64,000 nt of DNA from Moniliella sp. 'wahieum' (taxonomy: Eukaryota), in contig RSEE01000004.1 of the NCBI GenBank assembly GCA_003971905.1, forward strand, positions 558,001 through 622,000. Reading direction: 5' to 3'. How positions within the stretch are numbered: the first letter of the stretch is position 1; each line of letters starts with the position of its first letter. This document shows, piece by piece, positions 11,935-57,863 of the stretch. The notes below the pieces were generated by a model. That model worked only from the letters and a program-made list of their open reading frames with translations, was not told where the DNA came from and made no database searches. The position numbers and the translations under genes are program-made.

Positions 11935-12021
11935 GCCTCGCTATTTCAATCGGTAGAATTTGAGACTCTTACTTGAAAGAGGTCCATCTCACGGTTGTGG
12001 GTTCGAGTCCCACGTGGGGCG
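11935..12021 (+). tRNA. tRNA-Lys(CUU) with 14-nt intron
   Basis: Cloverleaf GCCTCGC...GTGGGGCG; anticodon stem TGAGA/TCTCA; anticodon CTT; GTTCGAGTC B-box; TTTTT terminator at 12025. Confidence 0.93.
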
Positions 12022-16074: not shown

Positions 16075-16257
16075 GTCAACCTGGTGACCGGTGATCGCTG
16101 ACTAGCAAAGTGTGATTACGGGGTCTGATTCCGACACGACAGACGAGGGGATAACGATGGCTGTCACTTGCATGTCACTGCCGCTATCACGGGGGCAGGC
16201 TGGGTGGTGCCTCTTCGTGATACCATGAAGTCTTGCATAGCTTGTTGCGGGGTATAA

Positions 16258-16335
16258 GCTCCGATCTTCCAGTGGTTAGGAAGTGGGATTTTGAATTAAC
16301 TTCCCGAAACCTGGGTTCGAATCCCAGTTGGAGCT
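16258..16335 (+). tRNA. tRNA-Gln(UUG) with 6-nt intron
   Basis: GCTCCGA/TTGGAGC acceptor; TGGGA/TCCCG anticodon stem; anticodon TTG; GGTTCGAATCC; poly-T terminator. Confidence 0.9.
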
Positions 16336-16993
16336 TTTTGCTGGCAGTTTTTACTTGCAAGGATGCTGGTTGCGACGACACAGCAGAGGTACTCAGAGCA
16401 ACCCTTTCGCCTTGGTTTTTGCTAAAACGCTGGTTCCGGCAGGGCCTTCAGCTGAAGGGTCAGGCTGTTCGTTCAAGCTCGCTGTTATTGGAAGTGGGCA
16501 GCGTGCAGTTTTTGGCAACTGCCGCGCCATCCCACCGGGCCAGCTATTCCAGCCTATATTATCCCAGAGAGACAGCGCACGCACGCCATATTCCGAGTGT
16601 ATGCATACTGCGTGCTGGCACACGAACCGTTCCCGAGCAGATTTCTACTCAATGAACGCTTGCTGCCGGGAACTATGGTTCCAATATCTGAACTTGTCGC
16701 GCCCAGAGGATGCGCCTGCACCAGTACCAAAGAGAGCAGAATAGAATCAGATGAATGCAGATCTGGACGGCATAGCAAGCGCCTGAAGCCCTCACCTCAG
16801 GCGGGCGAGGCGTCACCTCGACAGTGGAGGAGGATATCAAAGGCAACAAAAAGGACTCAGGAAGACGAATTCCATCAGGGACGGGCCACACACCAGAGCC
16901 ACAGGCTACAGAACGTAGACACCAGGACACGAATGTGAGCCCCAAAGAGGTGAGGGGCCAAGTTGGGAAGAGACAAAGAGGATTACCGAGGCA

Positions 16994-23913: not shown

Positions 23914-26608
23914 ATGGCCTTCTTCCAATCTCCCACTCCATCAGCTCCACTGGGTGCCGCCCCTCTGGCTGCCAGCAGCCTAGCCCAGGCACCCAAGACA
24001 ATCGTCTTATCGGCGATGGACTACGGTCTCCGGTCGCCCTCGGCCTGCTCAAGTCAGGCCACCGCGTCCACTTCGTTGCGCCGTCTCCACCCTCCTTCGC
24101 TGCTTGACGGCATCCTCTTCCTTGGCTCATCTTTCCGCTCGTCGGGTTCGGTGTGGCGTTGGACCTTGCCACCCAGCGGGCCGTTGGCGGGATGGCGCTC
24201 GACGCGGCCTATTGCCCAGTTGTCTCCGAGCTACCTTGGCATGGGGGGCAGCGCTGACTTGGTATCAATGCTTCTGGCATTGCGCTGCCCGGTGCCGATC
24301 TCCTCGCATCGCGCATCAACCAAAACCATTGCGGAAGAAACGCTTTGCCCAATCCGTCGCGGGCCTGAGCCAGATCCAGCAACAGCAAGCTTCGAACCCT
24401 TGTGGCGTCGCAGCAGACTGCCGCCGCATCAGAATCCAGCCTGGTTTCCTCAGTCTCCTCCGAGTTGCCGCCCAGTGTAACAAGTATGCATCCAATTCGC
24501 AACTCTCAGCCCAAGCCGCCAGTGAGGCGGCCTACAAGGCCACCCAGGCTGCCGATGTTGCCACCGTTGCGGCTCAGACAGCTGCGAACAAGTCCTTCAT
24601 CGCCTCGCAAGCGGCCGAATCGGCCGTTGCCAACTCGGCCATCACCTCACAAGCGAGCAACATTGCTGCCGCCAACTTGGTATGTCTTTTTTGGATTTGC
24701 TCTTCTCCTTTTCTTCCACCTTACTGACCTGTTCATCGTTCCTTCATCATATACACCCAAAGTTTGCCTACGACAGCGGATTGCTACGGTTGGTTCCACT
24801 TCTGCCGCTCAGGCGGCTGGCCTGTATGGATACAACTCGATCGCTGGTGCTAATGCCGCAACGGCGGCTGATCTGAGCAGTTATGGATCTTTTGCCGCGG
24901 CACAACAAGCTCAAGCGGTTTCCGCTGCTGGTCGCGGCGGCTATAATGGATCCAACGCTGCTCTCCAGACGGCTCAGTCCGCTGCCTTGGCCGGCTATGG
25001 TTCTGTCGCGGCTGCGGAGGCTGCTCAGATCCAGGCAGCTCAGGCGGCTACCGCATCCGGTCTATCCGGCTACGGCAGCACCGTTTCCGGGTTCAACGGG
25101 TACGGATCTGCCGCCGCTACGCAGGCCGCTGCTGTTAATGCTGTTGCTGCTGAGACGGCTGCTGCCCAGACGGTGGCTGCTCAGACGGCTGCTGCTCAGA
25201 ACTACGCCGCCCAGAACTATGCTGCAGAACTACGCTGCCCAACAGAATTACGCCGCCCGACCGCTGCGGCTCAAACATACGCTGCCCAGACCGCTGCTGC
25301 CCAGACCGCTGCGGCTCAGACATACGCTGCTGAGGCGGCTGCTGCCCAGGCTGTTGCTCAGACTTACGCTGCTGAGAAGGCTGCTGCGCAGACGGCTGCT
25401 GCCCAGACTTACGCTGCCCAGACTTACGCTGCCCAGACTTACGCTGCTCAAACGGCTGCTGCTCAACGGCTGCGGCCCAGACGGAAGCGGCTCAGAATTA
25501 CGCTGCCCAACAGACGGCTGCTGCCGGTCTGGCTGGCTACAGGTCCGCTTCAGCTCGAGGCGCGACCGCGGCCGATTTGGCCAGCTACGGCTCAACTGGT
25601 GCTCTACAAGCTGCTACTAGTCTTTCCTCGGCGGACGTGGCGGCGGCACTTTCGGAGACGGTCGCGTCGCGCCACACGCAATCAGTCCTGGACAATGCGT
25701 TGGTGCAAGCTGGAGTTACGGGGGGTGTATGTCGTCCTTGGCCGCGGCCAAGACTTCGGCCCTAACCCAAGCGGCCATTTCGAATGCTGTCCAGTGGGCC
25801 GCAGCCACCCAACAGGCGGAAGAGCAGCAGGCGGCGCTCAAGGCGGCTGCGTATGCTGCGGTGGCTCAGTCGTCTATTGCTTCTTCGGTCGCCAGTGCCA
25901 ATCAGCAGGCAGCGGTGGCGCGCGCGCTTGAGGCACAGTCGTCGGGTGTAGCGAAGCATGCGGTGGAGAGCGCCATCCAGCAAGCGGCCGCTTCCACCTA
26001 CGCCCGTTCCGCTGTGGCGCAGGCGTACCAGCAGCATGCCATTGCCCAGCAGGTATCCCAGCAGCGTGCTATCGCCCAGCAGGTATCCCAGCAGCGTGCC
26101 GTGGCCCAGCAGGCGGCTGCTTGGAACGCCGCAGCCCAGACCCAAGAGGTGGCGGCGCAGGCGCAGCAGCGCGTTGGCGGCGGCGGCGCAGTCGAGCGTG
26201 ACCCAAGCGATTGTGGCCAACGCGGTGGCGCAGTATGGCTCGTCGGTGGTCAACCCGGCGGCCGTGGCAGCAGTGCTGCAGGGTGCGTTCAACTCTTCCT
26301 CGTCGGGATCGTTTAGCCCGGCGGCGAGCGCAGTCCAGGCGCAGATCCAGGCCCAACAAGCGCAAGCCCAGGCTGTCCGCTCCGCGGCGGTCCTGGAGCA
26401 CCTAACTGGCCCACGCAAGCCCTTGCTCGAGACGACGCAGGCACTGGCGGGGATCAACTATGGCATTACTTCCCCGCCCTCGGTTGCGGGGCTGGTGGCC
26501 GGGCTGCCGTCCAACTATGCGATGACACCGGCGACACGCCTGTTCTCGCTCAACGCTTCACCGGCGGCAGCTCTTTCTGCGGCCCGTGTTGGCATGGCGC
26601 GACTTTAA
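23914..26608 (+). CDS. Ala/Gln/Ser-rich low-complexity repeat protein of unknown function (frameshifted)
   Basis: TATA box, ATG 23914, intron 24680-24776 (GTATGT...CTGAC...CAG). Pentapeptide repeats AQTYA/AQTAA/AQNYA and scattered GYGS/SYGS motifs. Stop at 26608. Confidence 0.75.
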
Positions 26609-27142: not shown

Positions 27143-27228
27143 AATGACCAGGCGAGTGCCAACTTAGTACTTCAGTCTCTCTTGATGCTTTTACAGTTGC
27201 ATGCTTCAATCTAGTCAGCCAAAAAACA

Positions 27229-27313
27229 CGCCCCACGTGGGACTCGAACCCACAACCGTGAGATGGACCTCTGTTATAAGAGTCTCAAATTCTACCGATT
27301 GAAATAGCGAGGC
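27229..27313 (-). tRNA. tRNA-Lys(CUU) with 12-nt intron
   Basis: Mature sequence identical to the copy at 11935; the intron differs. TTTTTT terminator. Confidence 0.93.
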
Positions 27314-29255
27314 TGTTTTTGCAAGATTGGGGCCGTAGAAACTGAGTTAAGTGACAATAGCAAGAGTCAAATCATACCCTACCTTCTCTACTACCCTGGC
27401 TTCTCTCTTTACACTTAAGGGGAAGCAGCAAAAACACTGCACCTGTACACATCGGATGCGAATTGTAAGTTAGTTGCGCTTGGGATCCTCCTACGTCCAA
27501 CCCCTTCCTAAGGAGGGCCGATATGGTGTGGTTGCTGTTTGTGTATAATAGTGGTGTTGTGTTTTTTAATTGGTACAGACAGAGAAGAGAACTTTCACAA
27601 AGCATTCTTCAGTGTGTGGAGGCCAAAAGAGAAGAAGCAAAATTGAACTCCATCAGCACTGGCTGTGTTGAACAGCAGAAGTGTTCTTCGTACTAACGTA
27701 GCCCACACTGCTAATATAGTGCGACTTGGAGCACTCGCGATCGCTATTGATCAGTTGCACATTATATTGAAGCAGCTTTCGGACAAGGCTTGGTGAAGGC
27801 AAAGCAGTCTAGCCACAAAAGGCTTCAAACAATGTCTGAAGGGAAGGAGACAGGAGAGAGAGGAGGAGATGGAGTTATCCACTCGTGCACTGCCCAGTGG
27901 GTATGGGAACGGATGTCGGCGGGAGTCCCCAGAGGGTGTCCTGATCGAACGGATTGAATCTCTTGGCGATTCCCCTGGTTCCCTAAACGGGGTCGCCGCC
28001 AAAAAGCAACACAAGCCGGGGATGATCGAGCTCTGTCGATGATACTATGGTTACTACAGTTTCCCTTGTGGTCCCCTAAACGGTGGGGGGTTGGCGCGAA
28101 CGAGCAACACAAGTCGGATGAGCGGTTCGGTTTACAGAGGCGCAGCGTTTCTTTGTTCCAGCCATAAGCTCTGGAAATGACATGGTCACAGCGTAGTAGA
28201 GATATGCAGTTGAATTGTGGCTATGAGACTAGCAACCGTCGTGACACGCACTACATGCAACAGGGTGGTGCTAGGGTTCACCTGCACTATCTCCAATGGA
28301 TCGGTGATGCTCGCTGGTTCGGGTGATTCGCCCCTTGCGTGGTCTGTGCGCCACCCCTTTTTGTCTGTTCCGACTTGCTTGCTTGGCTCTTGTCTTCTTC
28401 CCTTCAGCTTGCTTGAAGGACTTGTGGCTGACTGCCCTGCCTTCTTGCACGTCTTGAAGGTGCGCCTCTGCTTTCCCTGTTCTTGTGTTGTCCTCCGCAA
28501 TGCAGCTTGCTTGAACAAGGACTTGTGGCTGACTGCCCTGCCTTTTCTTTTGCACGTCTTGAAAAGCTCATCTCTTGTGCTGCCCATAGCGTTTCCCAGC
28601 TGCAGTCTAGCAGGTTATGTCGCCCTTCTCTTCTGCCTTTGCGCATTCTGCGCACCCGGTTTACTCGCCTGACGACATTGTGGAAGCGTATGTTTGTCGT
28701 GGCGAGTTTGACCCCAACTCCCAAGTCGGGTTGACTTCTAGCAAGACCACAGCGAAGTGGCAGGCTTTTCGAGTCCAGTACATGGTTGGTGCTTGGGCTG
28801 GACTGAACACTGTCCTGTGGGACGTTGACGTGGACGTCGCTGCCGAGTTCATCCACGACGTCATTCCTACCCTTCGCCGCTGGGAGATCCCGATGAAGGG
28901 CATAGACCTTCCGGCCCCTGGTTCTGCAGTGGCAGACAAGGACTCTACTGTGGCTGATATCATTACCAAATACAGCAAGGACCATGGCGGCGAAGACATC
29001 TTGCTCACACCGACTTCTATGTTGCCTATGTCTTTTATAAGAAGTCTCATTGCTTCTCCACCTTTGAGGACTTGCATGCGGCACTCATGCTCCATGTCGG
29101 TGAAGTGAAACGTGCTTGGAGACAGTACTGGATCAATCGGTCTTCCGAAGAAAGTCGCAAGCGTGTCGCTCTGAAGCGTCGTATCATGCGTGACATGCTC
29201 ATCGACCCAGCGCGCCTGCCTCCTACTGCCGAATATGAGGATGAACTTCAGGTAC

Positions 29256-30645
29256 TGTTGGCCTAGGGAGCCGGACGGGCAGAAGGATGAGGAGAAGGTG
29301 ATGGATTGGAGCCAGAGTTGGGTCTGGGTACAGAGGCATCTATAGGAGGCTGGACTAGGCACAGGGACAGTGAGTCACACAGGAGAGAGTGCAGGGCACA
29401 GGGACAGTGACACGCAGGGACGTCAGCGTGGAAGCCGATGGAACCGAGGCGAACCTGGTCTACCGACTGGGAGCCAGAGGATCACAGTCAACACCCCCGC
29501 TGGCCAGGGAACCCGGAGACATCGGTTGTGGATGAGCTCCTGCCAGTGGATGTAGAGAGGGAGGACTTGAGTGGCAACCGGGACGAATGGCCTGGAGTTG
29601 TGCATGGCCACACGACTGGCCTACACCCCCGCTGTCCAGGATGACACCTGAACGAGCCGAGCGCTTGTGGTTGGTGTATTGTGCGACCGCCAGATGCTTG
29701 TAGAAGTCTTAGAAGTAAAAGTAGTAGGGGTTGCGCCCCGAAGCGATTTGGTGGGCAAAAGTAAAAAGCACCAGTTATAGGTGTAGTGAAAGAAAATTGG
29801 AAACTTGGAGTAAATGCGGTCCAAGGTCGTTTGGCATCAAAATTGGATGCGTTTGGTAGTTGTTTGGTTCCGCATGCCTGGTGCCAGTGGGGTCCATTGG
29901 GCATGGGAAATGAACGGGCGCTATGCGTCAACCGTCTTGATCTGTTTGGGTTCTCTTTGTTGTTGAAAAAGAGGAGTGGAAGAAGTTGGGTGACCACCCC
30001 CCCCATCCTTTCCCCAGGTGCCCCGGATGAATTGGCAATCCGGGGCGTGTAGCCGTGGGTGGGGCACTTGATGAGCAGCCACCCCGCTTTCTGCGATTCG
30101 CCTGCGCCGTTTTGTCGTTGGAGGAATTTCGTCTCGTTGACGATACCCGACACGTTTTGTTCCGTCGTGTGTTGTCCCTAAAAATCATTGCCCCATCTGT
30201 GGGGGACGAGTGTGCCGATTGTGGCGGTAGTATGCCGATTGTGGCGGTAGTATGCCGATTGTGGCGGTAAGGTGCCGATTGTGGCGGTGGTGTTGTTGGG
30301 CGGGAGGACGGGTGTGTCTTGTGGGCTTGGCGGCTTAGCTTGGGCTTGTAGGCTTGGGGTGGGCTTGCTTGAAGAGCGCTCCCCTTCCGGGGGGATCAGA
30401 TTGTAGCTCTGTTGGCCTAGGGCCGGACGGGCAGAAGGATGAGGAGAAGGTGATGGATTGGAGCCAGAGTTGGGTCTGGGTACAGAGGCATCTATATAGG
30501 AGGCTGGACTAGGCACAGGGACAGTGAGTCACACAGGAGAGAGTGCAGGGCACAGGGACAGTGACCGCAGGGACGTCAGCGTGGAAGCCGATGGAACCGA
30601 GGCGAACCTGGTCTACCGACTGGAGCCAGAGGATCACAGTCAACA
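29256..30645 (-). mobile_element. Miniature (TRIM-like) LTR element, copy 1 (LTRs 29256-29493 and 30410-30645)
   Basis: LTRs of about 237 bp bounded by TGTTG...CAACA; G-tract PPT next to 29493 on the minus strand; TATATA in the LTR; left flank GGTAC. Confidence 0.9.
30211..30288. repeat. 21-bp tandem repeat (TGCCGATTGTGGCGGTAGTA-type, about 4 copies) inside the miniature element; repeated at about 31594-31669
   Basis: Read directly from the sequence. Confidence 0.9.
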
Positions 30646-30646
30646 T

Positions 30647-32016
30647 TGTTGGCCTAGGAGCCGGACGGGCAGAAGGATGAGGAGAAGGTGATGGATTGGA
30701 GCCAGAGTTGGGTCTGGGTACAGAGGCATCTATATAGGAGGCTGGACTAGGCACAGGGACAGTGAGTCACAAGGAGAGTGCAGGGCACAGGGACAGTGAC
30801 ACGCAGGACGTCAGCGTGGAAGCCGATGGAACCGAGGCGAACCTGGTCTACCGACTGGGAGCCAGAGGATCACAGTCAACACCCCCCTGGCCAGGGAACC
30901 CGGAGACATCGGTTGTGGGATGAGCTCCTGCCAGTGGATGTAGAGAGGGAGGACTTGAGTGGCAACCGGGACGAATGGCCTGGAGTTGTGCATGGCCACA
31001 CGACTGGCCTACACCCCGCTGTCCAGGATGACACCTGAACGAGCCGAGCGCTTGTGGTTGGTGTATTGTGCGACCGCCAGATGCTTGTAGAAGTCTTAGA
31101 AGTAAAAGTAGTAGGGGTTGCGCCCCGAAGCGATTTGGTGGGCAAAAGTAAAAAGCACCAGTTATAGGTGTATGAAAGAAAAATTGGAAACTTGGAGTAA
31201 TGCGGTCCAGGTCGTTTGGCATCAAAATTGGATGCTTTGGTAGTTGTTTGGTTCCGCATGCCTGGTGCCAGTGGGGTCCATTGGGCATGGGAAATGAACG
31301 GGCGCTATGCGTCAACCGTCTTGATCTGTTTGGGTTCTCTTTGTTGTTGAAAAGAGGAGTGGAAGAAGTTGGGTGACCACCCCCCCCCATCCTTTCCCCA
31401 GGTGCCCCGGATGAATTGGCAATCCGGGGCGTGTAGCCGTGGGTGGGGCACTTGATGAGCAGCCACCCCCGCTTTCTGCGATTCGCCTGCGCCGTTTTGT
31501 CGTTGGAGGAATTTCGTCTCGTTGACGATACCCGACACGTTTTGTTCGTCGTGTGTTGTCCCTAAAAATCATTGCCCATCTGTGGGGCGAGTGTGCCGAT
31601 TGTGGCGGTAGTATGCCGATTGTGGCGGTAGTATGCCGATTGTGGCGGTAAGGTGCCGATTGGGGCGGTGTGTTGTTGGGCGGGAGGACGGGTGGTCTTG
31701 TGGCTTGGCGGCTTAGCTTGGGTTGTAGCTGGGGGTGGGCTTGCTTGAAGACGCTCCCCTTCCGGGGGATCAGATTGTAGCTCTGTTGGCCTAGGGAGCC
31801 GGACGGGCAGAAGGATGAGGAGAAGGTGATGGATTGGAGCCAGAGTGGGTCTGGGTACAGAGGCATCTATATAGGGCTGGACTAGGCCAGGGACAGTGAG
31901 TCACACAGGAAGAGTGCAGGGCACAGGGACAGTGACACGCAGGGACGTCAGCGTGGAAGCCGATGAACCGAGGCGAACCTGGTCTACCGACTGGAGCCAG
32001 AGGATCACAGTCAACA
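30647..32016 (-). mobile_element. Miniature (TRIM-like) LTR element, copy 2 (LTRs 30647-30881 and 31784-32016)
   Basis: Near-identical to copy 1 apart from indels; right flank GGTAC at 32017-32021. Confidence 0.9.
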
Positions 32017-33987
32017 GGTACCGGCAACTCAGATCGATACTGAGTCAGACCAGCGTATGGACCTGTTGGGCACCCCGAAACGTTCTGTCCGACTGACAGT
32101 GATAGGGGATGTTACAACCCTGGCTCTTGCTCATGACCCGTCGGCTGCTTGCCGTCGTGGCCGTCCCTTCTGGGGGCGTATCAGCGAGCAGGCCCCGTCT
32201 ACTCGCACTGACTAGCGAGGAGCAGCCTAAGTGGGTGGATGCGCCGCTCTAGTCCAGGGACACATGAATTTCGATGTTATGACTCTGCCGAAGCGTATGA
32301 CGCGTGCTTTTGCTTCCTCGCCTCTGACACCCCTGGTGCATGGTCCCGAGCAAAAAGATCCGTTGGCTGTTCTTCGCGCTGGCTGCAGGGCATCCGTACT
32401 CGTTTGGCCACCATTTATCACGACTTTGCTTCGATCTTGGCCGGCACAATGGAGGTGCCGCCGGGGGTGCACTCTCAGATCGTTGGGCAACTAATGACGC
32501 TGGTGTCGCCTGCCCTCGCGGCCTACATTTCGCGCCTAGCCACCACAAACGTCTCCCGGGATTCTTTACTCGGTTCCGGACTTCTTGTCGTGCTTGTTCG
32601 CGGAAGTGCGCCTTTCTACACCAAGCGTCTCTGAACTACAGCTGTCGGTGCGCCAGATGGAATGGGATCCCAATGCAGAACCGGCTTCTACGGCCCTGAC
32701 GCGCTGGCTCGATTCAATCCAGGTTTTGACCCTCTTGGGGTACTCCACTTATTGGGACCCTGCACGTGATGTCCAGTTTGGAGGCCCTTTTCCGGCGTGG
32801 TGATTCGTATCGGCCGCTGATTTTCGCAGGGCTACCTCCCGGACAGCGTGTGACCGTGGCACATGTCAATTCTGTCTTGGGGGACTTGCAGTCGTTGGCC
32901 CGGGCCAACTTCGTCATGGAGTATAACCGGATTGCGTCCATCTCGGTGCCTACGGTTGAATCTTTGGCTGTTGATTCTCTACCCCACCCGTTAATTCGGG
33001 GACCACGGGACTGCTGGGAACGTAGACATGTCTCTTGCATCGCAGCTAGGAGCGATGGGGCTCGCGGCTGTCTGCTGGAATTTCCGCCAGCCTGGCATAT
33101 CGCTGCCAACTGCCCGGCGCCGCGTCAGGACAACCGCATTTCTAACCGTGGTACGTCAGGATGGAATCGCACCCTCCCTGGGCCAGGATGGAACGCGAAT
33201 CCAACCGTGCGCCCCCCGCAGCAGCATGCTGTTGCGCGTGTGCTTCAAGCCTTGGCGCACAGTTTGACGATAATGGACCTGTCCGTACCAGAGGAGGATG
33301 GCCTGCCTGCCGCGGGGGTTCGATGATATCGAATAGGGGTGGCGCGGGGTGAGGCGCTCATTATGCTCGCAGAGGACTTGTTGAGCGCATTGTCTACGAC
33401 TCGCCCAGGACGCGCCCCCCTTATTTCCCCCCTTTTGTCTTCTTCCCTTCAGCTTGCTTGAATGACTTGTGGCTGACTGCCCGCCTTCTTGCACGTCTTG
33501 AAGCTCATTTCTTGTGCTGCCATAGCGTTTCCCAGCTGCAGTCTAGCACTACAGACTTCTGTTGCCACACTATACGTTAGCATCACTATCGACATCATCG
33601 ATGCATCAGTATCGGTCTTTAAGCTTCAAGGTTCACGGGTTCCGGTTATACCAGGTTATACTACCGGGCGGGACTCCAGGTATCGATCGTAACCGCGGAG
33701 AAGGGGGGAAGCTTCCTTTTGGTGTCGACCCATGGTGGGGTGGCTCGTGCATTTTTGCCCCAAAGGTTCTTTTGGACTTTCCCTCTTTTCACTGGCCACA
33801 AGCTCCAAAAGGAACTCCGATGTTCTCGCTGCTATTTGCCTCGTTTCGCAGCTATGGGGTCGGTGGCGAATGGGCGCTTGAGTACTCACTGAGTCCCTAT
33901 ATACATGTCTTTGGTATATCACACCACCACCACTATATATAGTGCTGGAGTGCTGCATCTCAGGTGGTCCTGGAGGACTGCCAGGCG

Positions 33988-34326
33988 TCACGCGTCAGGC
34001 CCGTCAGGCCCTCTCAGGTCTCAGGACCCGACTGCGTAGGGATTAGTCTCAGATCTCATCGAGTGAGGGACTAGTGACTAGTGACTAGTGACCGGTGACC
34101 ACTAAGTGACTAGTGGCTATTATAGCGACTCTCCTATTGAGAAAGATCTTTTCGGCTCTCAGTTTCACACGCTCCCTCTCAGATCTCATGTCGAAACGAC
34201 GACCTCCGAAGTCCCCAGGCCTCAGCCTGAGGCTTGAAGCTTGAAGCTTGACCGGCTGACCTCAGGGCCTGAGCCTCAGGAGCGTCAGGATCAATTGCAT
34301 CCAATGGCATGATGCATGATGCATGA
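33988..34326. repeat. Dense cluster of T[CG]A-palindrome-T[CG]A micro-repeats
   Basis: TCACGCGTCA; TCAGATCTCA twice; TGACTAGTGACTAGTGACCGGTGA; TGAAGCTTGAAGCTTGA; TGATGCATGATGCATGA. Confidence 0.9.
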
Positions 34327-34944
34327 TGCCTCCTGTGAAGAAAATGTCTCGTATGTAATACTCTGCCGGATGCCCTCGACCGCGGGAAGAGAGAGGCCAG
34401 TTTGGCCTTGTTATCTTCGATCCACAGCGTGTTGGGTCTACGTGAATGAGGCTGTGGCTGCCGCGTGCCGGCTGGCCAGAAGCGGGGATTAGGCGCTTGT
34501 GGGAGGGGAGATAGAAGGAGGCATGCTTGGACGCAGGCCGGATATAGTGCTGTATGAAGATGATGACGCGCGTTAATATGATTGGTCGGTGGCGAAGATC
34601 TCTCTCGATCGACGGTCTGGCTTCGGTGCCTACCGCCGGACCCTAGTTTGTGCTTACATAGCGGCCGTTGCGACGATGGAGTAGTGAATGGGAGGCAGGA
34701 CTCGGGTATTCAGCACGCCGTGCTCGGGCTGTATCCAGGCTTTTGGCCCCAGGGGGAGCAGCACTGGGGCGGTTGCTGGTGTGGCTGGTCGGCTGGCTGG
34801 CGGAGTTCGACTGCGGGATCGGTGCAACGGATGGGAGGGGGGGGGGCGAGGGGTGCTGCTGGCGGCCGACGTGTGGGCCGAGCGTATGGCGTGGTGGTGG
34901 TGATCGGTGTGCATCATCGCTGATCGACGTCCCTCGCTCGGCCG

Positions 34945-35057: not shown

Positions 35058-35298
35058 GACGCGCAGAGGCGCAGGCCGGCCAGCCAAAAAAAAGGTACAG
35101 CCTCCCGCCACCAACCCCCGCCCCTTCCGCCTCCCGCCAGCGCTGGCCGGCTCAGCCTAGTTCAGCGCAGGCCTGTGCGTCCAACGCGCGCCTCGTGTCG
35201 CCTGCTGTCGCCTCATTGCCACATCCACGCTCCGCACCCCTGCGCCATGCCGCCGCCCCTTCCCCCCCCGTATGCCAGCCCACTGCGCCAGCACCCCC

Positions 35299-36891
35299 AT
35301 GCTCGACCAGTTCCGCCTTCATCCGCCACGGCAAAGCCGCCGACCCGCGGTCGCCCAGACCGAGTGGGCCCAGTACCAGCGCGAGCGCGGCGATGCGATG
35401 GATCTCGATTTGCACGCCGTGCTTGATCCGTGCCGCCCACACCGGCCGAGGAACCCGGGCGGACGCGGTGGCAAGAGACCTGGTGCGGCAAGAGCATGCC
35501 CAGGCGGCGCAGTGCCCCAGTACCCAGGCCTGACAACGGTACCATCTCCTGACCAAGATGGGCGATGGCGCCTTTAGCAAGTTTACCATGCCGTCCACCG
35601 CGAGACGGGCTCGGAATGTGCCATCAAGGTCGTCCGCAAAGCCGAGTCCTCCGCCACCTCCACTCAATGCCCAGTTCCGGCGGAAAACAAGGTAACCGAG
35701 CGTGCTGGCATCCTCAAGAGGTACACATCATGCGCCGTCTCAACCACGGCAAATCATTCGCCTCCTCGAGTTTAGTGAATCAGACGATTTCTACTTTCTG
35801 GTGTTGGAACTGGCCAAGGCGGCGAGCTGTTCCATCAAATTGCGCACCTCACCTACTTTTCCGAAGCGCTCGCGCGCCACGTAATCCTTCAAGTGGCCGA
35901 AGCCATTCGCTACTTGCACCAGGAAGGGGTGGTGCACCGCGACATTAAACCTGAGAACATCCTGTTTGAGCCCATCCCGGTCATTCCCTCCAAGTTCTCC
36001 CGGGCGCGACCCTACGACGAAGACAAGGCGGATGAAGGCGAATTTATTCCCGGCGTGGGGGGCGGTGGCATTGGGCGGGTCAAGATTGCCGATTTGGGTT
36101 GAGCAAGGTGGTCTGGGAAGGATGGGCGACCAGTCCGTGTGGCACGATTGGCTACACGGCCCCCGAGATTGTCTTCTTCGCGGTATAGTAAATCGGTGGA
36201 TATGTGGGCATTGGGATGCGTACTCTACACCCTCTTATGCGGTTTCCCTCCCTTTTACGACGAGAGCATCGCCACCCTGACCCAAAAGGTGGCCCGAGGC
36301 GAATATACGTTTCTTTCGCCCTGGTGGGACGATGTGTCCGAGTCGGCCAAAGACCTAATCCGCCATTTGCTCACTGTTGACCCTCTCAAGAGGTATACCA
36401 TCGATCAGTTTCTGGCCCATCCTTGGTGTCGTGCGCCCCAGTCGGTCCCCTTCCTCACTCCTGGTGGGCTGGCGATTGCACAACGGATGCCGCTGGCCTC
36501 CCCTCTGCTCTCCGTTCTCCGTTCCACCGACCCTACCATGACCCGGCAAGCGCGGGCCGGATTGGGTCTCACCACACCGGGCATGCAACAACTGAAGGAA
36601 GCGTTTGACGTGTCCTATGCTGTACACCGAATGGGCGAGGAGGCTCAGGCGAATCCATCGGGTGGGCTGATGCAACTGAACGAAGAGGAGGAAGAGGAAG
36701 ATCTGCCCTGGGAGGCACAGAAAGCACTCCAAGCCACCCGCATCGGAATCACTCCACCCCCAGCCCGTTCACCTGGCTCGGGCGGGTTCCAGCTCAACCT
36801 CAACAATGCCACGTTGCTAAAGAACCGGGGCAACCGAGAGCCGCAACTCCACTTGGGTGGCCGCATGGCACCCCGCAACCCCGTGCTTTGA
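35299..36891 (+). CDS. CAMK-family MAPK-activated kinase (Srk1/Rck2/Cmk2-like), frameshifted
   Basis: N-terminal [32 protein letters not shown]...[62 protein letters not shown]. Confidence 0.92.
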
Positions 36892-48110: not shown

Positions 48111-50145
48111 ATGGGAGTTGAAAGGATGGGCGGAAGCCGGTGTGCACGTCTCACGCACACACGACGTGCGGCGAGCCGAGTTGAGCACCAGCAGTTGTGG
48201 GCGGACGTAGTCGGCCAGCCAAGTGGAGTGGGTGGCTGGTGGCGCCCCGTGGGCCAGCAAGGGTGGGGATGCAGGGTGCTCGATGTACTTGCCGGGTTGG
48301 GTGCGGACAACATGGGGACGGTGAGCGTGGTTGGGAGGCGCACGGAGGAGGGATTGGCTGGGGCGAACAAAGCAAAGGGAGAGTGGTGGCAGAGGAAAGG
48401 AAAGAGGGTGTGTGGCACAAGGCGGCTCTGATCGCTGGAAAGCGAAGTTACTGTCTAGCTGAGGGAGCAGGTGCGGTTGAGGCGTGCGGGTGGCCAGGGG
48501 TGGCCTTTGAGGCAGTCGTGTGGGATGGACGGATGGACAGATGGACAGATGGGGGCGGGTGGATGATGCACACAGGCGCCGATGCGCAGGCGAGTGCCCC
48601 CCCGCCAGTGTGGAGCCTGATCTGACCATACCCGCCGTGCGCCAGTGTGATTCGCCGCACGCAGGCGGGCAGTCGTGGCGGGGCAGTGAGGCGTGAGGCG
48701 TGCGGCGCCAGTGCCGCGCCCGGCCAGTGCGCCGCTAGTGCGCCCCCGTTCGGCATCCAGAACCGCCGCCCCGCTGTCTGCGCTCAAGCGCTCAACTTGG
48801 GCCCAGGCACAGGGTGGCACCCTGGCCGCCGGCTTTACGCGGGGTGCCTGCAGGAGCCCGCACAGCACCACACTGGCGGGCGATGTTTATAAGTGTACAT
48901 CACCTGAGGCACACTGCCGCTGTGCACGCGCTCGGGAGGATTTGCGCGCCCGCATAGAGGCAGTGTGCCAACGCCGCGGCATGGCGCCAGGCGCCTCTGT
49001 TGATGTCACATGTCATCGATCATCGGCCCGCAGCGGGGCATGGTGCTGTGCGGGTGCAGCGCAGAACAGACAGACAGAGGTGTAAACAGATGGATGAAGA
49101 GAAGGAACTAGAGCGGAATCCGCCGGACGGGAAACGGAACCCGGGCGGAATCACCCGGGAGCCCGTGCCCGTCCGCACAGGTGCATGGCAGGGCAGGGCA
49201 TGGCACTGGCACTGGCACTGGCGAGGCTGGCACCGCAGCGCATGCCTGAGCCTCTGGCCGCATGGTGGGCACACTGCCCCAGTGCAAGCACCATGGCGGA
49301 TCCTCGCAGCGCGCAGCTGCTCAGCGGCTCAGCGCCCAGGCCAAGCACAGCCTACGCGCTGACGCGCCCACATGCACCACAGCAGCCCACAGCGCGTCAG
49401 CACCCAACACCCACCCAACACCCCCAAAAACACCCAACACCAAATACCTAGCACGCGCCGCCCTACCCATGCGAACCCCAAAGGGTCCGAACAGTGCTAG
49501 TGCTGGCACTCAGCGTACTCAGTAACTCAACAACTTCACACGTTCAACGTGTTCAACGTTGGTCAACTCGTCGATCAACTCACACTGCCTTCTTTTGCAC
49601 ACTGGCCTCAATCAAGTCATCCGCACGCCCTCTCCACCAGTAACAGTATAGGATTGGTTACCTCTCTCTCTTGTATTTACTCTGCAGCTTTTTCTCTATC
49701 AACGTCCCCCCCACACGCGTTTTTGCCTCCCACGGAGACGTGTAGCATCGTGGTTTTTGATGTCTCGATTCCCGCAGAGAGCCGCCGGAGACGTCGAAAC
49801 TTCTTTTGCATACATGTGGGTGTGGGAGGGCGAACTGGAGCCCAACCCATGCCAGGTTACTAGGGCTGCTTGCCCTTATTGGAGGCGGAAGGCCCACTCA
49901 CGGTGTATCGAGCTTGAACGCTATTGGTAGTTATAGAGGTCTCAAAGCCCCAAAGTGTGTGCATGATAGTAGCGTGTAGCGTGTTTCAGATAATAAGTAG
50001 GAAAGGGGAGATAGAGATGCTTCGAGCAATCTTCTTGTCGAAAGTAGTGGCGAGACCTAAACGCACAACAATATGATGAAGGACAGATAGTAAAAACAGT
50101 CAGGACGGGCCGGTGATGGGGGATGGGAAGGCGCAAAAATAGGCA

Positions 50146-54271: not shown

Positions 54272-55182
54272 GCGGGCGGCTGGTGGCAGCAAGAGAAGGC
54301 GACGGCGTAGTAGCAGGGAAGCGGGTGGGAGTGGAGTAGGTGGCGTAGAACGGGAAGGAAGAGACGGAGAAGCGGTGGCGTGGTGGCGGCCGAGCAAGCC
54401 GAGGGCCTACCTGTCTTGCTGCGTCTGAGTCGCTCGAAAAGGGGCGGCAAGACTGAGACCAGTTGCGTACTGAGACTGGGTATCGGGAGGCTGGCGGCCG
54501 AGTATAAAACTGTGATAGCCCACACTGGCCCGCTGCCGGGTTTATCCACAGCGGACAGCTGCTATTTGCGAGTGCTATACGGCCTGCTACGGCTTGCTAC
54601 GGCAGGCCCCATAGCATGCAACACGCACCAAGGGCATCCGTCCCAGCTCCCGCGACCCTGGATGCTGAGTCGCTGACACACCGATGCAGAGATTGGCAGT
54701 TACGTGTGACGTACAACGCGGTTACCCTGTCCGCATGGCGAGGGGCAGTCGAAGCGCTGAGCATGCTCAGCGGTTCTGGCCCCCAGAGGTGTTCTGGTAG
54801 ATCGATGCTATTTCTCCGACCTCCCAATTCTACCCCCTGCTTGCTTGCTCTCTTGGCCATCTGTCTGATGCCCATCACTCAGCCAGCACTCAGTACTACT
54901 CAGTAGTACCCAGTACTCAGTTACTCAGTAGTACTCTCAGACATTAGTATCAGTCTGAGTACTGAGACTCAGTATTACTCTTCAGTGTATCGGCGCCAGC
55001 GCAACACTGGCGTTACAGGGGGTTAGACCTGTTGCCGCGTTCCCTTACTTTTTACATGCCGTCGGCCCCTCGCACGTGCGTGGGCCGGGCCATTCCTCTC
55101 AGCCATTCCATCCGTCGTACAACGCGTAACGCGTAACGGCCAGCGGCCATCAGCACTCAGCCTGAGCGTTTCCCCATGGCCC

Positions 55183-55222
55183 CTGAGCGCCTGAGCGCCT
55201 GAGCGCCTGAGCGCCTGAGCGC
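55183..55222. repeat. (CTGAGCGC)5 tandem
   Basis: Read directly; lies within a TGA/TCA-rich cluster. Confidence 0.95.
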
Positions 55223-57058
55223 CTCAGGGAGACATGGGATCTGTGAGATCTGAGATCGGAGAGTGAATATTGAATTGCCATGCATAATGCTACTGTCACA
55301 TTGTCACCGGCCATGTGTACGTGGAGGGTTGGCGCTGGTTATTCTGGTTGTTTGGCTGCATAGGCGCTAGGTCCCAGGTTGGGTGCCGGCGGAATATCTC
55401 TTAGACTGACGCAAAGCTCGGGGCGATCTGCGCCGTGCACAGGACAGGAAACGGCTGGGCTGGGCGAAGTGGCCAAAATCGCATGACTTTGGAGGTGTCG
55501 TGTCGAGAGCAGCACAGAGCTCTATCCCCCCGCACACCCCTGCCGCACTGCCCACCTGCCTCTCATCCGCTCGGGTTTTCCCGGATATGCCATGTTTCAA
55601 ATTGCAATCGTCCGCGATGCATCATCGATCCATGATTAATGATTCTCGACTGTAGCCGCCCCATCGGCCTCACGGACGCATACCAACAGCTGCATGTACG
55701 AATCCACCCTGTTCGAACCTCTTCAGCGCATCGAGCTTGGGCTCCCAGCTCCCCAGGCCCACACCCGTCATCCAGCCCTCGAAACTCACTTCAGAGCTTC
55801 CGAGGGCCAGGCCTCTCACAGCGGGACTCTCACACGTCACACCTCCGTCACGCCCGCAACGTTGGCTGTGACATGTGAAGCCTGAGGCTCAGGCGCTCAG
55901 GCCTGAGGCGTTGTTGCATGTGAGCGCGTGAAGGCGCCAAGAGCTGCTGAGCGCGCGCTGAGCCCCAGCCAATGGCAACCGGTACCTTCCCCACGATTCA
56001 AGTTCTGACGCGGATGCCTGTCAGAGAGTCAGTAGTCAGAAGCGGGTCGGCACATCTTGTTGCTCCGCGTTCCCTCTCCTCCACCTCCGGCAAGTTCCTT
56101 TTTAGGGAAGGAGAGGCGATGATGGTGGTCGCATTCTAAAGAGGAGACCGTCAGGGGCTCAACATATGGAGAGTCGCGTAGAACAGTGTGGAAGGGAGGT
56201 GATTTGTCAGATCTGCTTACGCGCTGACACTTTTTGCACTAACTGAGAGTGTCACCATGTCACTACTGTTGCACGGTGGATCTTGAATTCCATGATGTGG
56301 TTTCCGTACCGTAGGTCTCTCGAGAGAGAGACTGCGCACAACAGACGGAAGCAGGAAATGTCCCGCACTGTGAAGGGGGCATTTCTCCCACTCAATACGC
56401 AGATATTCAGGCCTTTCTTGTGCTGTGATGTGCATGATGGCGATGGTCATTGTCACAATCGGGGCTAAGGCGAGGGAGACCAGAATCGGGACTAGGCCAA
56501 GGGGTGTAGCAACCGTTCGTGAGGAAGAAGCAAGAACAGAGGGAGGACATGGTGCGAAGTGGAAGAAACAGGGAAAGGAAAGAGCTAGACGCTCGGGACG
56601 AAGAAACTGGAAATGGGAGTGAGATCAGTCAAACTATATGATGGAGACATCCCGGGTTGTCGAAAAAGGCCAGTTCATTCAACAGTTCTGCCTTGATCAA
56701 CTGCGGATCAAGATGAGACGGTCCAGGTAACAATCGCCCCCCCTCTCTTGATTTGTGTATAATGGCGAATTGCTGGCGGGTCGTGTTACAGTCGCTACTA
56801 AGAAGTCGAACTTGTGCAAGGCCATGGGTACATCCTCACAAGACTTTCTTCCGAAAAGGCAGTAGAACCACTGTCGCCCTTTCAACGTCTAGGTGGTCCT
56901 CTGGCTCCAACGCGCTCAAAGAGCTTCTCGGATACCGTATTGGTTTTGTCTTCATATATACTAGCAGTCAACCCCTACAGCGAAATGTCGTTACATTCCA
57001 CGTGGTGGAACGGAGGAGGAACTTCTTCCACAAATATAGCCGTGGATGACCTTGTGAG

Positions 57059-57863
57059 TGTTGAGCCACCGGGTGGCTCGTGCTTTGGCCAATGTCCCTT
57101 CAGTTCCTCCTCATGCCTGAGAGTTCTGTTTTTTTTCTCCCTGTTTTCCTTGTTCAGCAGTATAGCCCCTGGTGGCGACTCGCTGCTTGATGTTCCTCAG
57201 TAGGCGTTGCTGGTTGGTTTAGACCACCACCACCACCACCACCACCATCAGTGCGATTGTATCACCCTCGAGGACCATCCGGACTCCAGGTCTCATCATT
57301 GAGGTTCCCGCCAATATAAAAACGTCTTTTACTCCTTTCACTTAGGCGCTGCCGTGGTAGAGTGTGCCCCTATCACTGCCAGAATAAGATGTCTTGCTGA
57401 TATGATCTCCACGCAGGGTGCGACAAGATGGACGTCGTACGTGAGATGGACGACGACACTTAATTTCACGGGGGCTTCATGGGGATGTGATCAACGTGGT
57501 GTTGATTCTGAACCAAAAACACGGACCGCACAACACACCTCACAACACAGAAGGTCATCTTCTCTTGTTCTCATTTTTTTGGATTTGGGCTTAGTTATAT
57601 AGCCGCCTCCGCTGTTGAGCCACCGCGGATGGCCCGTCTCTGTTTTGGCCAACCTCTCCTCTCAGTCGCATAGGAGTTCCGTTGTTTTCTCGCTTCTGTT
57701 TTTCTTGGTTCCGCAACCTTAATAGCCCCTGTGGTGGCGAAAAGACCGACAGAGTTGTGGCTGGTGCTTCCGCATTAGTTGATGTTCCTTTGGATACTTA
57801 GGCGTTCCTGGCTGGCTTAGTCCACCACCACCATCAGTGCGATTGCATCACCCTCGAGGACCA
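57059..57863. repeat. Degenerate direct repeat pair of about 220-250 bp (57059-57277 and 57613-57863)
   Basis: Both copies start TGTTGAGCCACC and end (CAC)nCATCAGTGCGATTGYATCACCCTCGAGGACCA. Confidence 0.8.

Follow-up and report, generated by a model that had tools for sequence, protein, structure and literature searches.

Spacer switches in palindromic T-N-A repeat arrays of a Moniliella genome: founder sites grown on both sides by 7-bp scars of probable excision origin

The array and its genomic setting

The 64,000-nucleotide stretch of Moniliella sp. 'wahieum' DNA analysed here (the window) corresponds to positions 558001–622000 of contig C4 (RSEE01000004.1) in an assembly of 69.5 Mb and 223 contigs (GCA_003971905.1). 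Its genes are of fungal type (PX/DUF3818, MAS20, PHD, kinase, HLH and SOG2). The array at window positions 33988–34326 lies ~0.9–1.2 kb upstream of a protein-kinase gene on the + strand (35227–36891; Pkinase E 2e-20 for the translation), which is frameshifted in the assembly and has an approximate start. At least five homologous copies of the region are present and fall into two groups, with identities of ~96–99.5% and ~93% within the groups and ~75% between them. Specifically, C16 and C153 are ~96% identical to C4 and 99% identical to each other across 19 kb, while C17 and C66 are ~75% identical to C4 and ~93% identical to one another. The multi-copy assembly is that of a hybrid, a polyploid or uncollapsed haplotypes. 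Substitutions between homologous copies amount to 2.9% overall, with transitions accounting for 826 of 1,349. The 85 indels of 1–2 bp found against C16 in 9.6 kb of coding proxy, together with frameshifts in conserved window genes such as the kinase gene, point to an unpolished long-read assembly. Assembly indels of 1–2 bp cannot produce the 7-bp rule described below.

The array adjoins a 5.3-kb insertion (28256–33552) that is missing in C16. The insertion has TG..CA ends, a 5-bp duplication, terminal repeats that match only partly and an internal tandem duplication of ~1.39 kb at 97%; it is an LTR-like non-autonomous element. Elsewhere in the window, the segment 22960–27471 is inverted relative to C16 and C66, and an inverted near-copy of the tRNA-Lys(CTT) gene (11935–12021) is located at 27220–27318. 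A coding 15-bp repeat (AAQTY-like pentapeptides; 25113–25525) varies in unit number between copies, a tRNA-like gene at 16257–16336 is called by ARAGORN with a four-base anticodon, and segments 1–630 and 56451–56637 are further multicopy repeats with many copies at ~90%.

The 339 bp of the array contain ten T[GC]A-palindrome-T[GC]A units, against a mean of 0.06 and a maximum of 2 in 2,000 dinucleotide shuffles, and all six spacers that a sequence-only reading had listed (CGCG, GATC, CTAG, CCGG, AGCT and TGCA) are found there. In the whole window, the spacer is palindromic in 46 of 95 T[GC]A-N4-T[GC]A occurrences (shuffle mean 3.9, maximum 9, 50 shuffles), and the two cores have the same orientation in 40 of these 46 units. 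The pattern is intergenic: the coding proxy holds 1 of the 40 direct palindromic units but 376 of 1,850 T[GC]A sites. Because the homologous copy in C16 holds most of the array, it is not an artefact of a single contig. Non-palindromic spacers, omitted from the sequence-only reading, occur between like cores at 34014 and 34228, and a third occurs at 34096, after the switching chain described below, where the second core is TAA.

One-sided birth of the units

Pure indels with clean flanks were collected from 285,767 aligned columns of the C4/C16 and C17/C66 pairs, with two transposon-to-transposon alignments excluded. Indels of 5, 6, 7, 8 and 9 bp number 19, 23, 30, 8 and 15, respectively, with a local peak at 7 bp. 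Eleven of the 30 clean 7-bp indels are exact T-N-A 5+2 events, in which five bases are duplicated and two inverted bases are added. The short allele in these events is a repeat-free 7-mer, xy-TNA-zw. The long allele contains an extra w'z'-TNA-zw to the right of this 7-mer or an extra xy-TNA-y'x' to its left (primes denote complements); the palindrome is even-centred in 11 of 11. The other 7-bp indels comprise two whole units in palindromic arrays, two other inverted insertions, two plain duplications and 13 that fit nothing. Under a general rule that allows one, two or three inverted bases and a restart at varying positions, 20 of 107 pure indels of 5–11 bp fit at T-N-A, all of them 6–9 bp long, while 4 of 107 fit only at one of 60 other cores. 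The indels are unpolarised as to gain or loss, since no outgroup aligns in intergenic DNA. The 20 clean events in these 286 kb show that units were still changing during the divergence of the homologous copies (~3% substitutions). Multi-unit gains include a polymorphic switch at position 110005 (in the numbering where C4 646679 is 88679).

Isolated two-core units tell which side was copied. Among 191 such units, 63 match the left side only, 59 the right side only, 31 both and 38 neither. Units are born one-sided, and both sides are used equally. An origin by exact duplication of 7-mers that were already palindromic was rejected, as 122 of the 191 units match one side only. The earlier view that plain slippage does not explain a change of spacer agrees with these data, as the 11 short alleles hold no such repeat and slippage cannot make the first unit from them. 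Every product would rebuild target sites, so that re-targeting and slippage lengthen each arm; microsatellite-like slippage probably extends existing arms, 51 of the 61 pairs of neighbouring palindromic spacers being identical.

The units of the array, all given on the + strand, can be read from the 7-mer on which they were built, designated the founder. At 33986–34008, founder CG-TCA-GG (33993–33999) carries a left +7 unit (33986–33992) and a right +9 product (34000–34008), the latter composed of two inverted bases plus a full 7-bp copy; this group is absent from C16. At 34012–34025 lies a plain duplication of 7 bp that has TCA at its centre, no inverted bases and a non-palindromic spacer. 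Left-only +7 units with their founders lie at 34047–34060 and 34177–34190, the second of which is also present in C16. Two left +7 units stand on founder CT-TGA-CC (34247–34253; whole feature 34233–34253), of which C16 has the founder only, with a 14-bp indel at 34238. At 34308–34328, a homogeneous three-unit array is built on a 7-mer that was already palindromic, and C16 is identical.

At C4 position 646679 and at window position 34082, founders have an extra left unit in one copy and an extra right unit in the other, with equal total length. These differences could go back to separate events or to one mismatch that was resolved in opposite ways.

A spacer switch is a founder between two independently made arms

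The chain TGA-CTAG-TGA-CTAG-TGA-CCGG-TGA at 34075–34098, which the sequence-only reading had singled out, is indeed present. At its centre is founder AG-TGA-CC (34087–34093), the sole hybrid 7-mer of the chain, with unlike dinucleotides on its two sides. The left arm (34066–34086) consists of two intact +7 units and one with a decayed core (34066–34072), while the right arm (34094–34100) consists of one +7 unit. Left growth copies xy and right growth copies zw; unrelated flanks therefore give two palindromic spacers around one hybrid unit, and the outer flanks AG and CC obey this rule. The hybrid is shared by C16, where two spacers lie on each side of it. The second chain reported earlier, TCA-CATG-TCA-TCGA-TCA at 49006–49022, was also confirmed. 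It belongs to a switch (49004–49024, + strand) in which founder TG-TCA-TC (49011–49017) carries one left and one right unit, with spacers that differ at 4 of 4 bases; in C16, the left unit is absent and the founder core has one substitution.

The sequence-only reading had explained the step from CTAG to CCGG by compensatory substitutions. In the form considered here, paired substitutions would alter the spacer in homogeneous arrays, and palindromy would be kept by selection, such as protein binding, or by correction. The 10 switches in 540 kb of non-redundant DNA have 20 outer flanks, of which 19 match the founder rule and 0 match compensation. Five of the 10, the 49006 switch included, differ at all four bases (59% is expected for independent flanks) and would need four changes each. 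The exact CTAG/CCGG switch occurs 26 times genome-wide (control 0), at 24 independent loci, where 33 of 48 flanks fit the founder rule, 3 of 48 compensation and 12 of 48 neither; we read the 15 flanks unlike the founder as decay. A single event that keeps the inverted bases of both ends was also rejected, because the swapped outer flanks that it predicts are seen at only 0 of 20 and 3 of 48 positions.

The kinds of spacer that neighbour one another were also counted. In a first listing (first 100 of 126 rows, counted by eye), the transition-related partner occurs 22 times, the transversion-related partners 21 and 17 times, single-change partners 23 times and others 17 times. Thus, the transition partner is not favoured, although transitions make up the 826 of 1,349 substitutions given above. 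A second listing (first 100 of 154 rows, by eye) contains 57 four-base switches, 10 two-base switches, 9 single changes and 24 others. Scaled up from the 200 of 280 rows counted by eye, two-base switches amount to ~51%, somewhat above the 37% expected from spacer usage, which would favour compensation. We read this mild excess as a preference for half-palindromic founders or as re-targeting of decayed array ends. The aligned chains of C4 and C16 likewise show an apparent paired change at 34085–34086. Such a change calls for caution: if the founder reading is right, what looks like compensation between aligned sequences may be a single hybrid site that was copied in both directions.

Two further comparisons, both proposed together with the original observation, bear on whether palindromy is maintained. 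Adjacent spacer pairs in the 540 kb comprise 51 identical pairs, 10 palindromic switches, 30 single-change non-palindromic pairs, 19 other mixed pairs and 8 in which both spacers are non-palindromic, so that the excess of compensatory over single changes for which the sequence-only reading had asked did not appear (10 against 30), and the outcome is the one that it had named as refuting. Of 120 ungapped units compared between homologous copies (117 gapped units were kept apart), 76 are identical, 19 have the spacer broken by one change, 18 have a changed core, 4 are broken by more changes and 3 have another palindrome. None of these three is a true palindrome-to-palindrome substitution: one is a misalignment, and two are shifts in unit number at an existing switch, one of them the 34075–34098 chain. 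Spacers decay at about the background rate (2.9% substitutions), and all 16 palindromes are in use as spacers, which also argues against compensation. With flanks, four-base switches, transition counts and broken spacers all against it, compensation is very improbable. The earlier proposal that palindromy is generated or maintained is thus borne out in its first half, by the 5+2 insertion rule, and contradicted in its second: palindromy is generated, not maintained.

Geometry of the scars and their probable origin

Patterns were counted on both strands of 605 kb of DNA, for a tip located two bases away from the core and for two inverted bases; units within arrays were counted singly. The +7 pattern, in which 5 bp are copied, occurs 526 times at TGA/TCA, against 9.3 expected, and an additional 101 times at TTA/TAA; T[GC]A is favoured among T-N-A targets. 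Copies of 4 bp at TGA/TCA (70 against 16 expected), 6 bp (73 against 2.2) and 7 bp (42 against 1.5) are also enriched, while copies of 8 bp (1 against 0.6) and 9 bp (1 against 0.2) are at background. Single-class loci give the same picture (186 against 4.4, 24 against 1.1, 29 against 1.1 and 1 against 0.5). The copied part therefore has a ceiling of 7 bp, and the duplicated block is exactly xy-TNA-zw, never extending past x; it is the rarer +8 and +9 products that show where the duplication stops. At single-class loci, the inverted bases number two at 186 loci, one at 22 and three at 2. Founder flanks are near background composition (n = 218), as expected of a target rule and not of a protein-binding word. 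Plain 7-bp duplications without inverted bases are not enriched (40 against 47.8 at control cores), and the core is centred in 20 of 50.

Each unit is probably a scar left when a two-ended break at a 7-bp xy-TNA-zw site was repaired, most likely the excision footprint of a cut-and-paste element that duplicates a 7-bp target. Specifically, the element would insert and thereby duplicate xy-TNA-zw. Upon excision, each flank would be sealed as a flush hairpin of the RAG/Transib/Muta1 type, and a host nuclease of the Pso2/Artemis kind would open each hairpin 2 nt 3' of the tip. The opened hairpins would end in 3' overhangs of 4 nt, zw-w'z' on one side and y'x'-xy on the other, and each recessed strand would begin at the core. 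End joining would then ligate across the 4-nt mismatch, the top strand giving the right-hand product and the bottom strand the left-hand product, and opening of one hairpin at another position would give +6, +8 or +9. This geometry accounts for the +7 length, the even palindrome, the unchanged core orientation, the 1:1 ratio of left and right units (63:59) and the lack of double-sided products. Flank hairpins are formed by hAT, Transib, RAG and Muta1 (PMC5499845). Opening by Artemis is mainly at +2, with a range of +1 to +4 (PMC2175297), and in yeast, Pso2 cuts hairpins 2 nt 3' of the apex and repairs those of Ac/Ds (PMC3299998).

An element-free origin by template switching, in which a nick 2 nt 5' of T-N-A is followed by displacement of five bases, a switch onto the flap via the self-complementary T-N-A and ligation, would also yield +7, an even palindrome and an unchanged core. 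Like the scars, short-range template-switch mutations combine inverted copies with apparent compensatory changes in one step, so that short switches can mimic compensatory substitutions (PMC5453318). The copy would be fixed at 5 bp, yet copies of 6 and 7 bp stand at 20–30 times expectation, with a ceiling of 7. No excess comparable to that at T-N-A was found at the other self-complementary cores tested, and a sequence-specific nickase would still be required. In addition, as far as PMC5453318 describes them, template-switch mutations are neither sequence-targeted nor length-fixed, while the scars have one core and a 7-bp ceiling. Template switching is hence a doubtful source of the scars, well below excision in likelihood.

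Excision footprints left by flank hairpins are recognised by inverted (P) bases at a fixed junction and by a duplicated target of fixed maximum length. The scars have both: the inverted bases are seen in 11 of 30 indels and in the 526 against 9.3 patterns, and duplications of 4–7 bp are enriched while those of 8–9 bp are at background. We infer that they are a variant form of hairpin-type excision footprint, made by a still hypothetical enzyme.

Transib and RAG make a 5-bp target duplication. Unlike theirs, the scar duplication reaches 7 bp. The scars resemble the P nucleotides of V(D)J coding joints, made by RAG/Transib hairpins and Artemis, in having an even palindrome at a fixed tip, mostly two inverted bases and minor one-base variants (PMC2175297, PMC5499845). 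The distribution of inverted bases (186, 22 and 2 loci) is that expected if flush hairpins are opened mostly at 2 nt from their tip, as in RAG/Transib joints (PMC2175297). Unlike P nucleotides, the scars include a duplicated target that is up to 7 bp long and has T-N-A at its centre, are intergenic and are highly uniform. Footprints of the hAT element Ac/Ds in plants, S. cerevisiae and C. albicans share with the scars short palindromic insertions, and with their proposed origin the flank hairpin, its opening by the host and end joining (PMC5873905, PMC3299998). However, the centre of an Ac/Ds palindrome is the complement of the nucleotide next to the element (PMC5873905), whereas scar palindromes have no centre base; hAT chemistry therefore does not fit the scars.

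We infer a transposon step from the form of the scars; the DNA was searched for an element. Kyakuja elements have CA..TG ends without TIRs, while EnSpm/CACTA (CMC) elements have a Tnp2 transposase and CAC..GTG ends. In duplication length, the scars are like basidiomycete hAT7 and Kyakuja (KDZ), both of which are known with 7-bp duplications (PMC12730594). Duplications of basidiomycete EnSpm/Plavaka (CMC) are 2–3 bp (PMC12730594), and a 7-bp duplication would be atypical of EnSpm. Tnp2-like relics are present in the genome. We saw no description of excision footprints for Kyakuja or EnSpm/Plavaka. In the literature searched, mostly outside subscription journals, no description of the palindromic 7-bp scar pattern was found.

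None of the 11 large insertions between C4 and C16 carries a 7-bp duplication at T-N-A; those that are clearly resolved belong to the LTR type and have duplications of 4–5 bp. Scans for TIRs with 7-bp duplications, which detect TIR-bounded elements only, found nothing in 657 kb of partly redundant DNA. The KDZ (PF18758) and hAT-dimer (PF05699) profiles gave 0 matches and the Plavaka profile none, with control profiles equally blank in each case, so that these blanks do not establish absence. Two repeats of the window were rejected as scar donors. The 240-bp repeat at 57059–57298, multicopy (also in C16, C17 and C66) and polymorphic between copies, is a solo LTR with TG..CA ends and 5-bp duplications; the 5.3-kb insertion next to the array is LTR-like with its 5-bp duplication.

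Transposase_21 (Tnp2/EnSpm-like) relics were found at three loci, on C17, C62 and C34, on none of which TIR-based end scans recognised ends. The C17 and C62 matches are one old insertion common to two homologous copies. On C34 (513408–516695), a single-copy Tnp2/EnSpm-like reading frame in four overlapping pieces has scar arrays on its flanks; the one longer relative of this frame is a hypothetical protein of Rhizoctonia, 30% identical. Given the assembly indels, the frameshifts in these relics need not be real.

Extrapolation from 333 units in 540 kb gives ~40,000 scars, or ~600 per Mb. Such a number without an abundant resident family is unusual for an ordinary transposon and counts against an excision origin. 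It would suit a transposase-like nuclease, either of the host or domesticated, or else a hit-and-run element of very low copy number, that cuts T-N-A with a 7-nt stagger, after which the ends would be filled in, sealed as hairpins and rejoined. The dense scars, the lack of a resident family with 7-bp duplications in the DNA examined and the single-copy frame on C34, whose frameshifts could be assembly errors, all speak for such an enzyme. Against it, we can cite no precedent for ends that are filled in and then form hairpins when no element end has been inserted, and the C34 frame is found once while host genes are multi-copy, as expected of a mobile insertion and not of a fixed host gene. We consider this origin unlikely, if somewhat less so than template switching. 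It is similarly a minor possibility that a RAG-like nuclease which forms hairpins, either a domesticated transposase or a hit-and-run one, is still active in this fungal lineage and has cut T-N-A in intergenic and promoter DNA tens of thousands of times without resident copies. Such a nuclease would act as a germline mutator with a sequence target, writing palindromic 7-bp repeats, and possibly new sites for dimeric factors, into promoters.

If instead the scars are excision footprints of a cut-and-paste element, as we consider probable, they record on a large natural scale how hairpins are opened and ends joined, and they reveal a route to tandem repeats that begins with transposon excision and not with slippage. 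They would also tell which target a putative uncaught element uses (NN-TNA-NN), how long its duplication is (7) and what its cut chemistry is, making it trappable by design.

A related array lies downstream in the window. At 55182–55224, an 8-bp tandem array of 5.4 copies obeys the +8 variant of the rule, and two of its units are polymorphic relative to C16.
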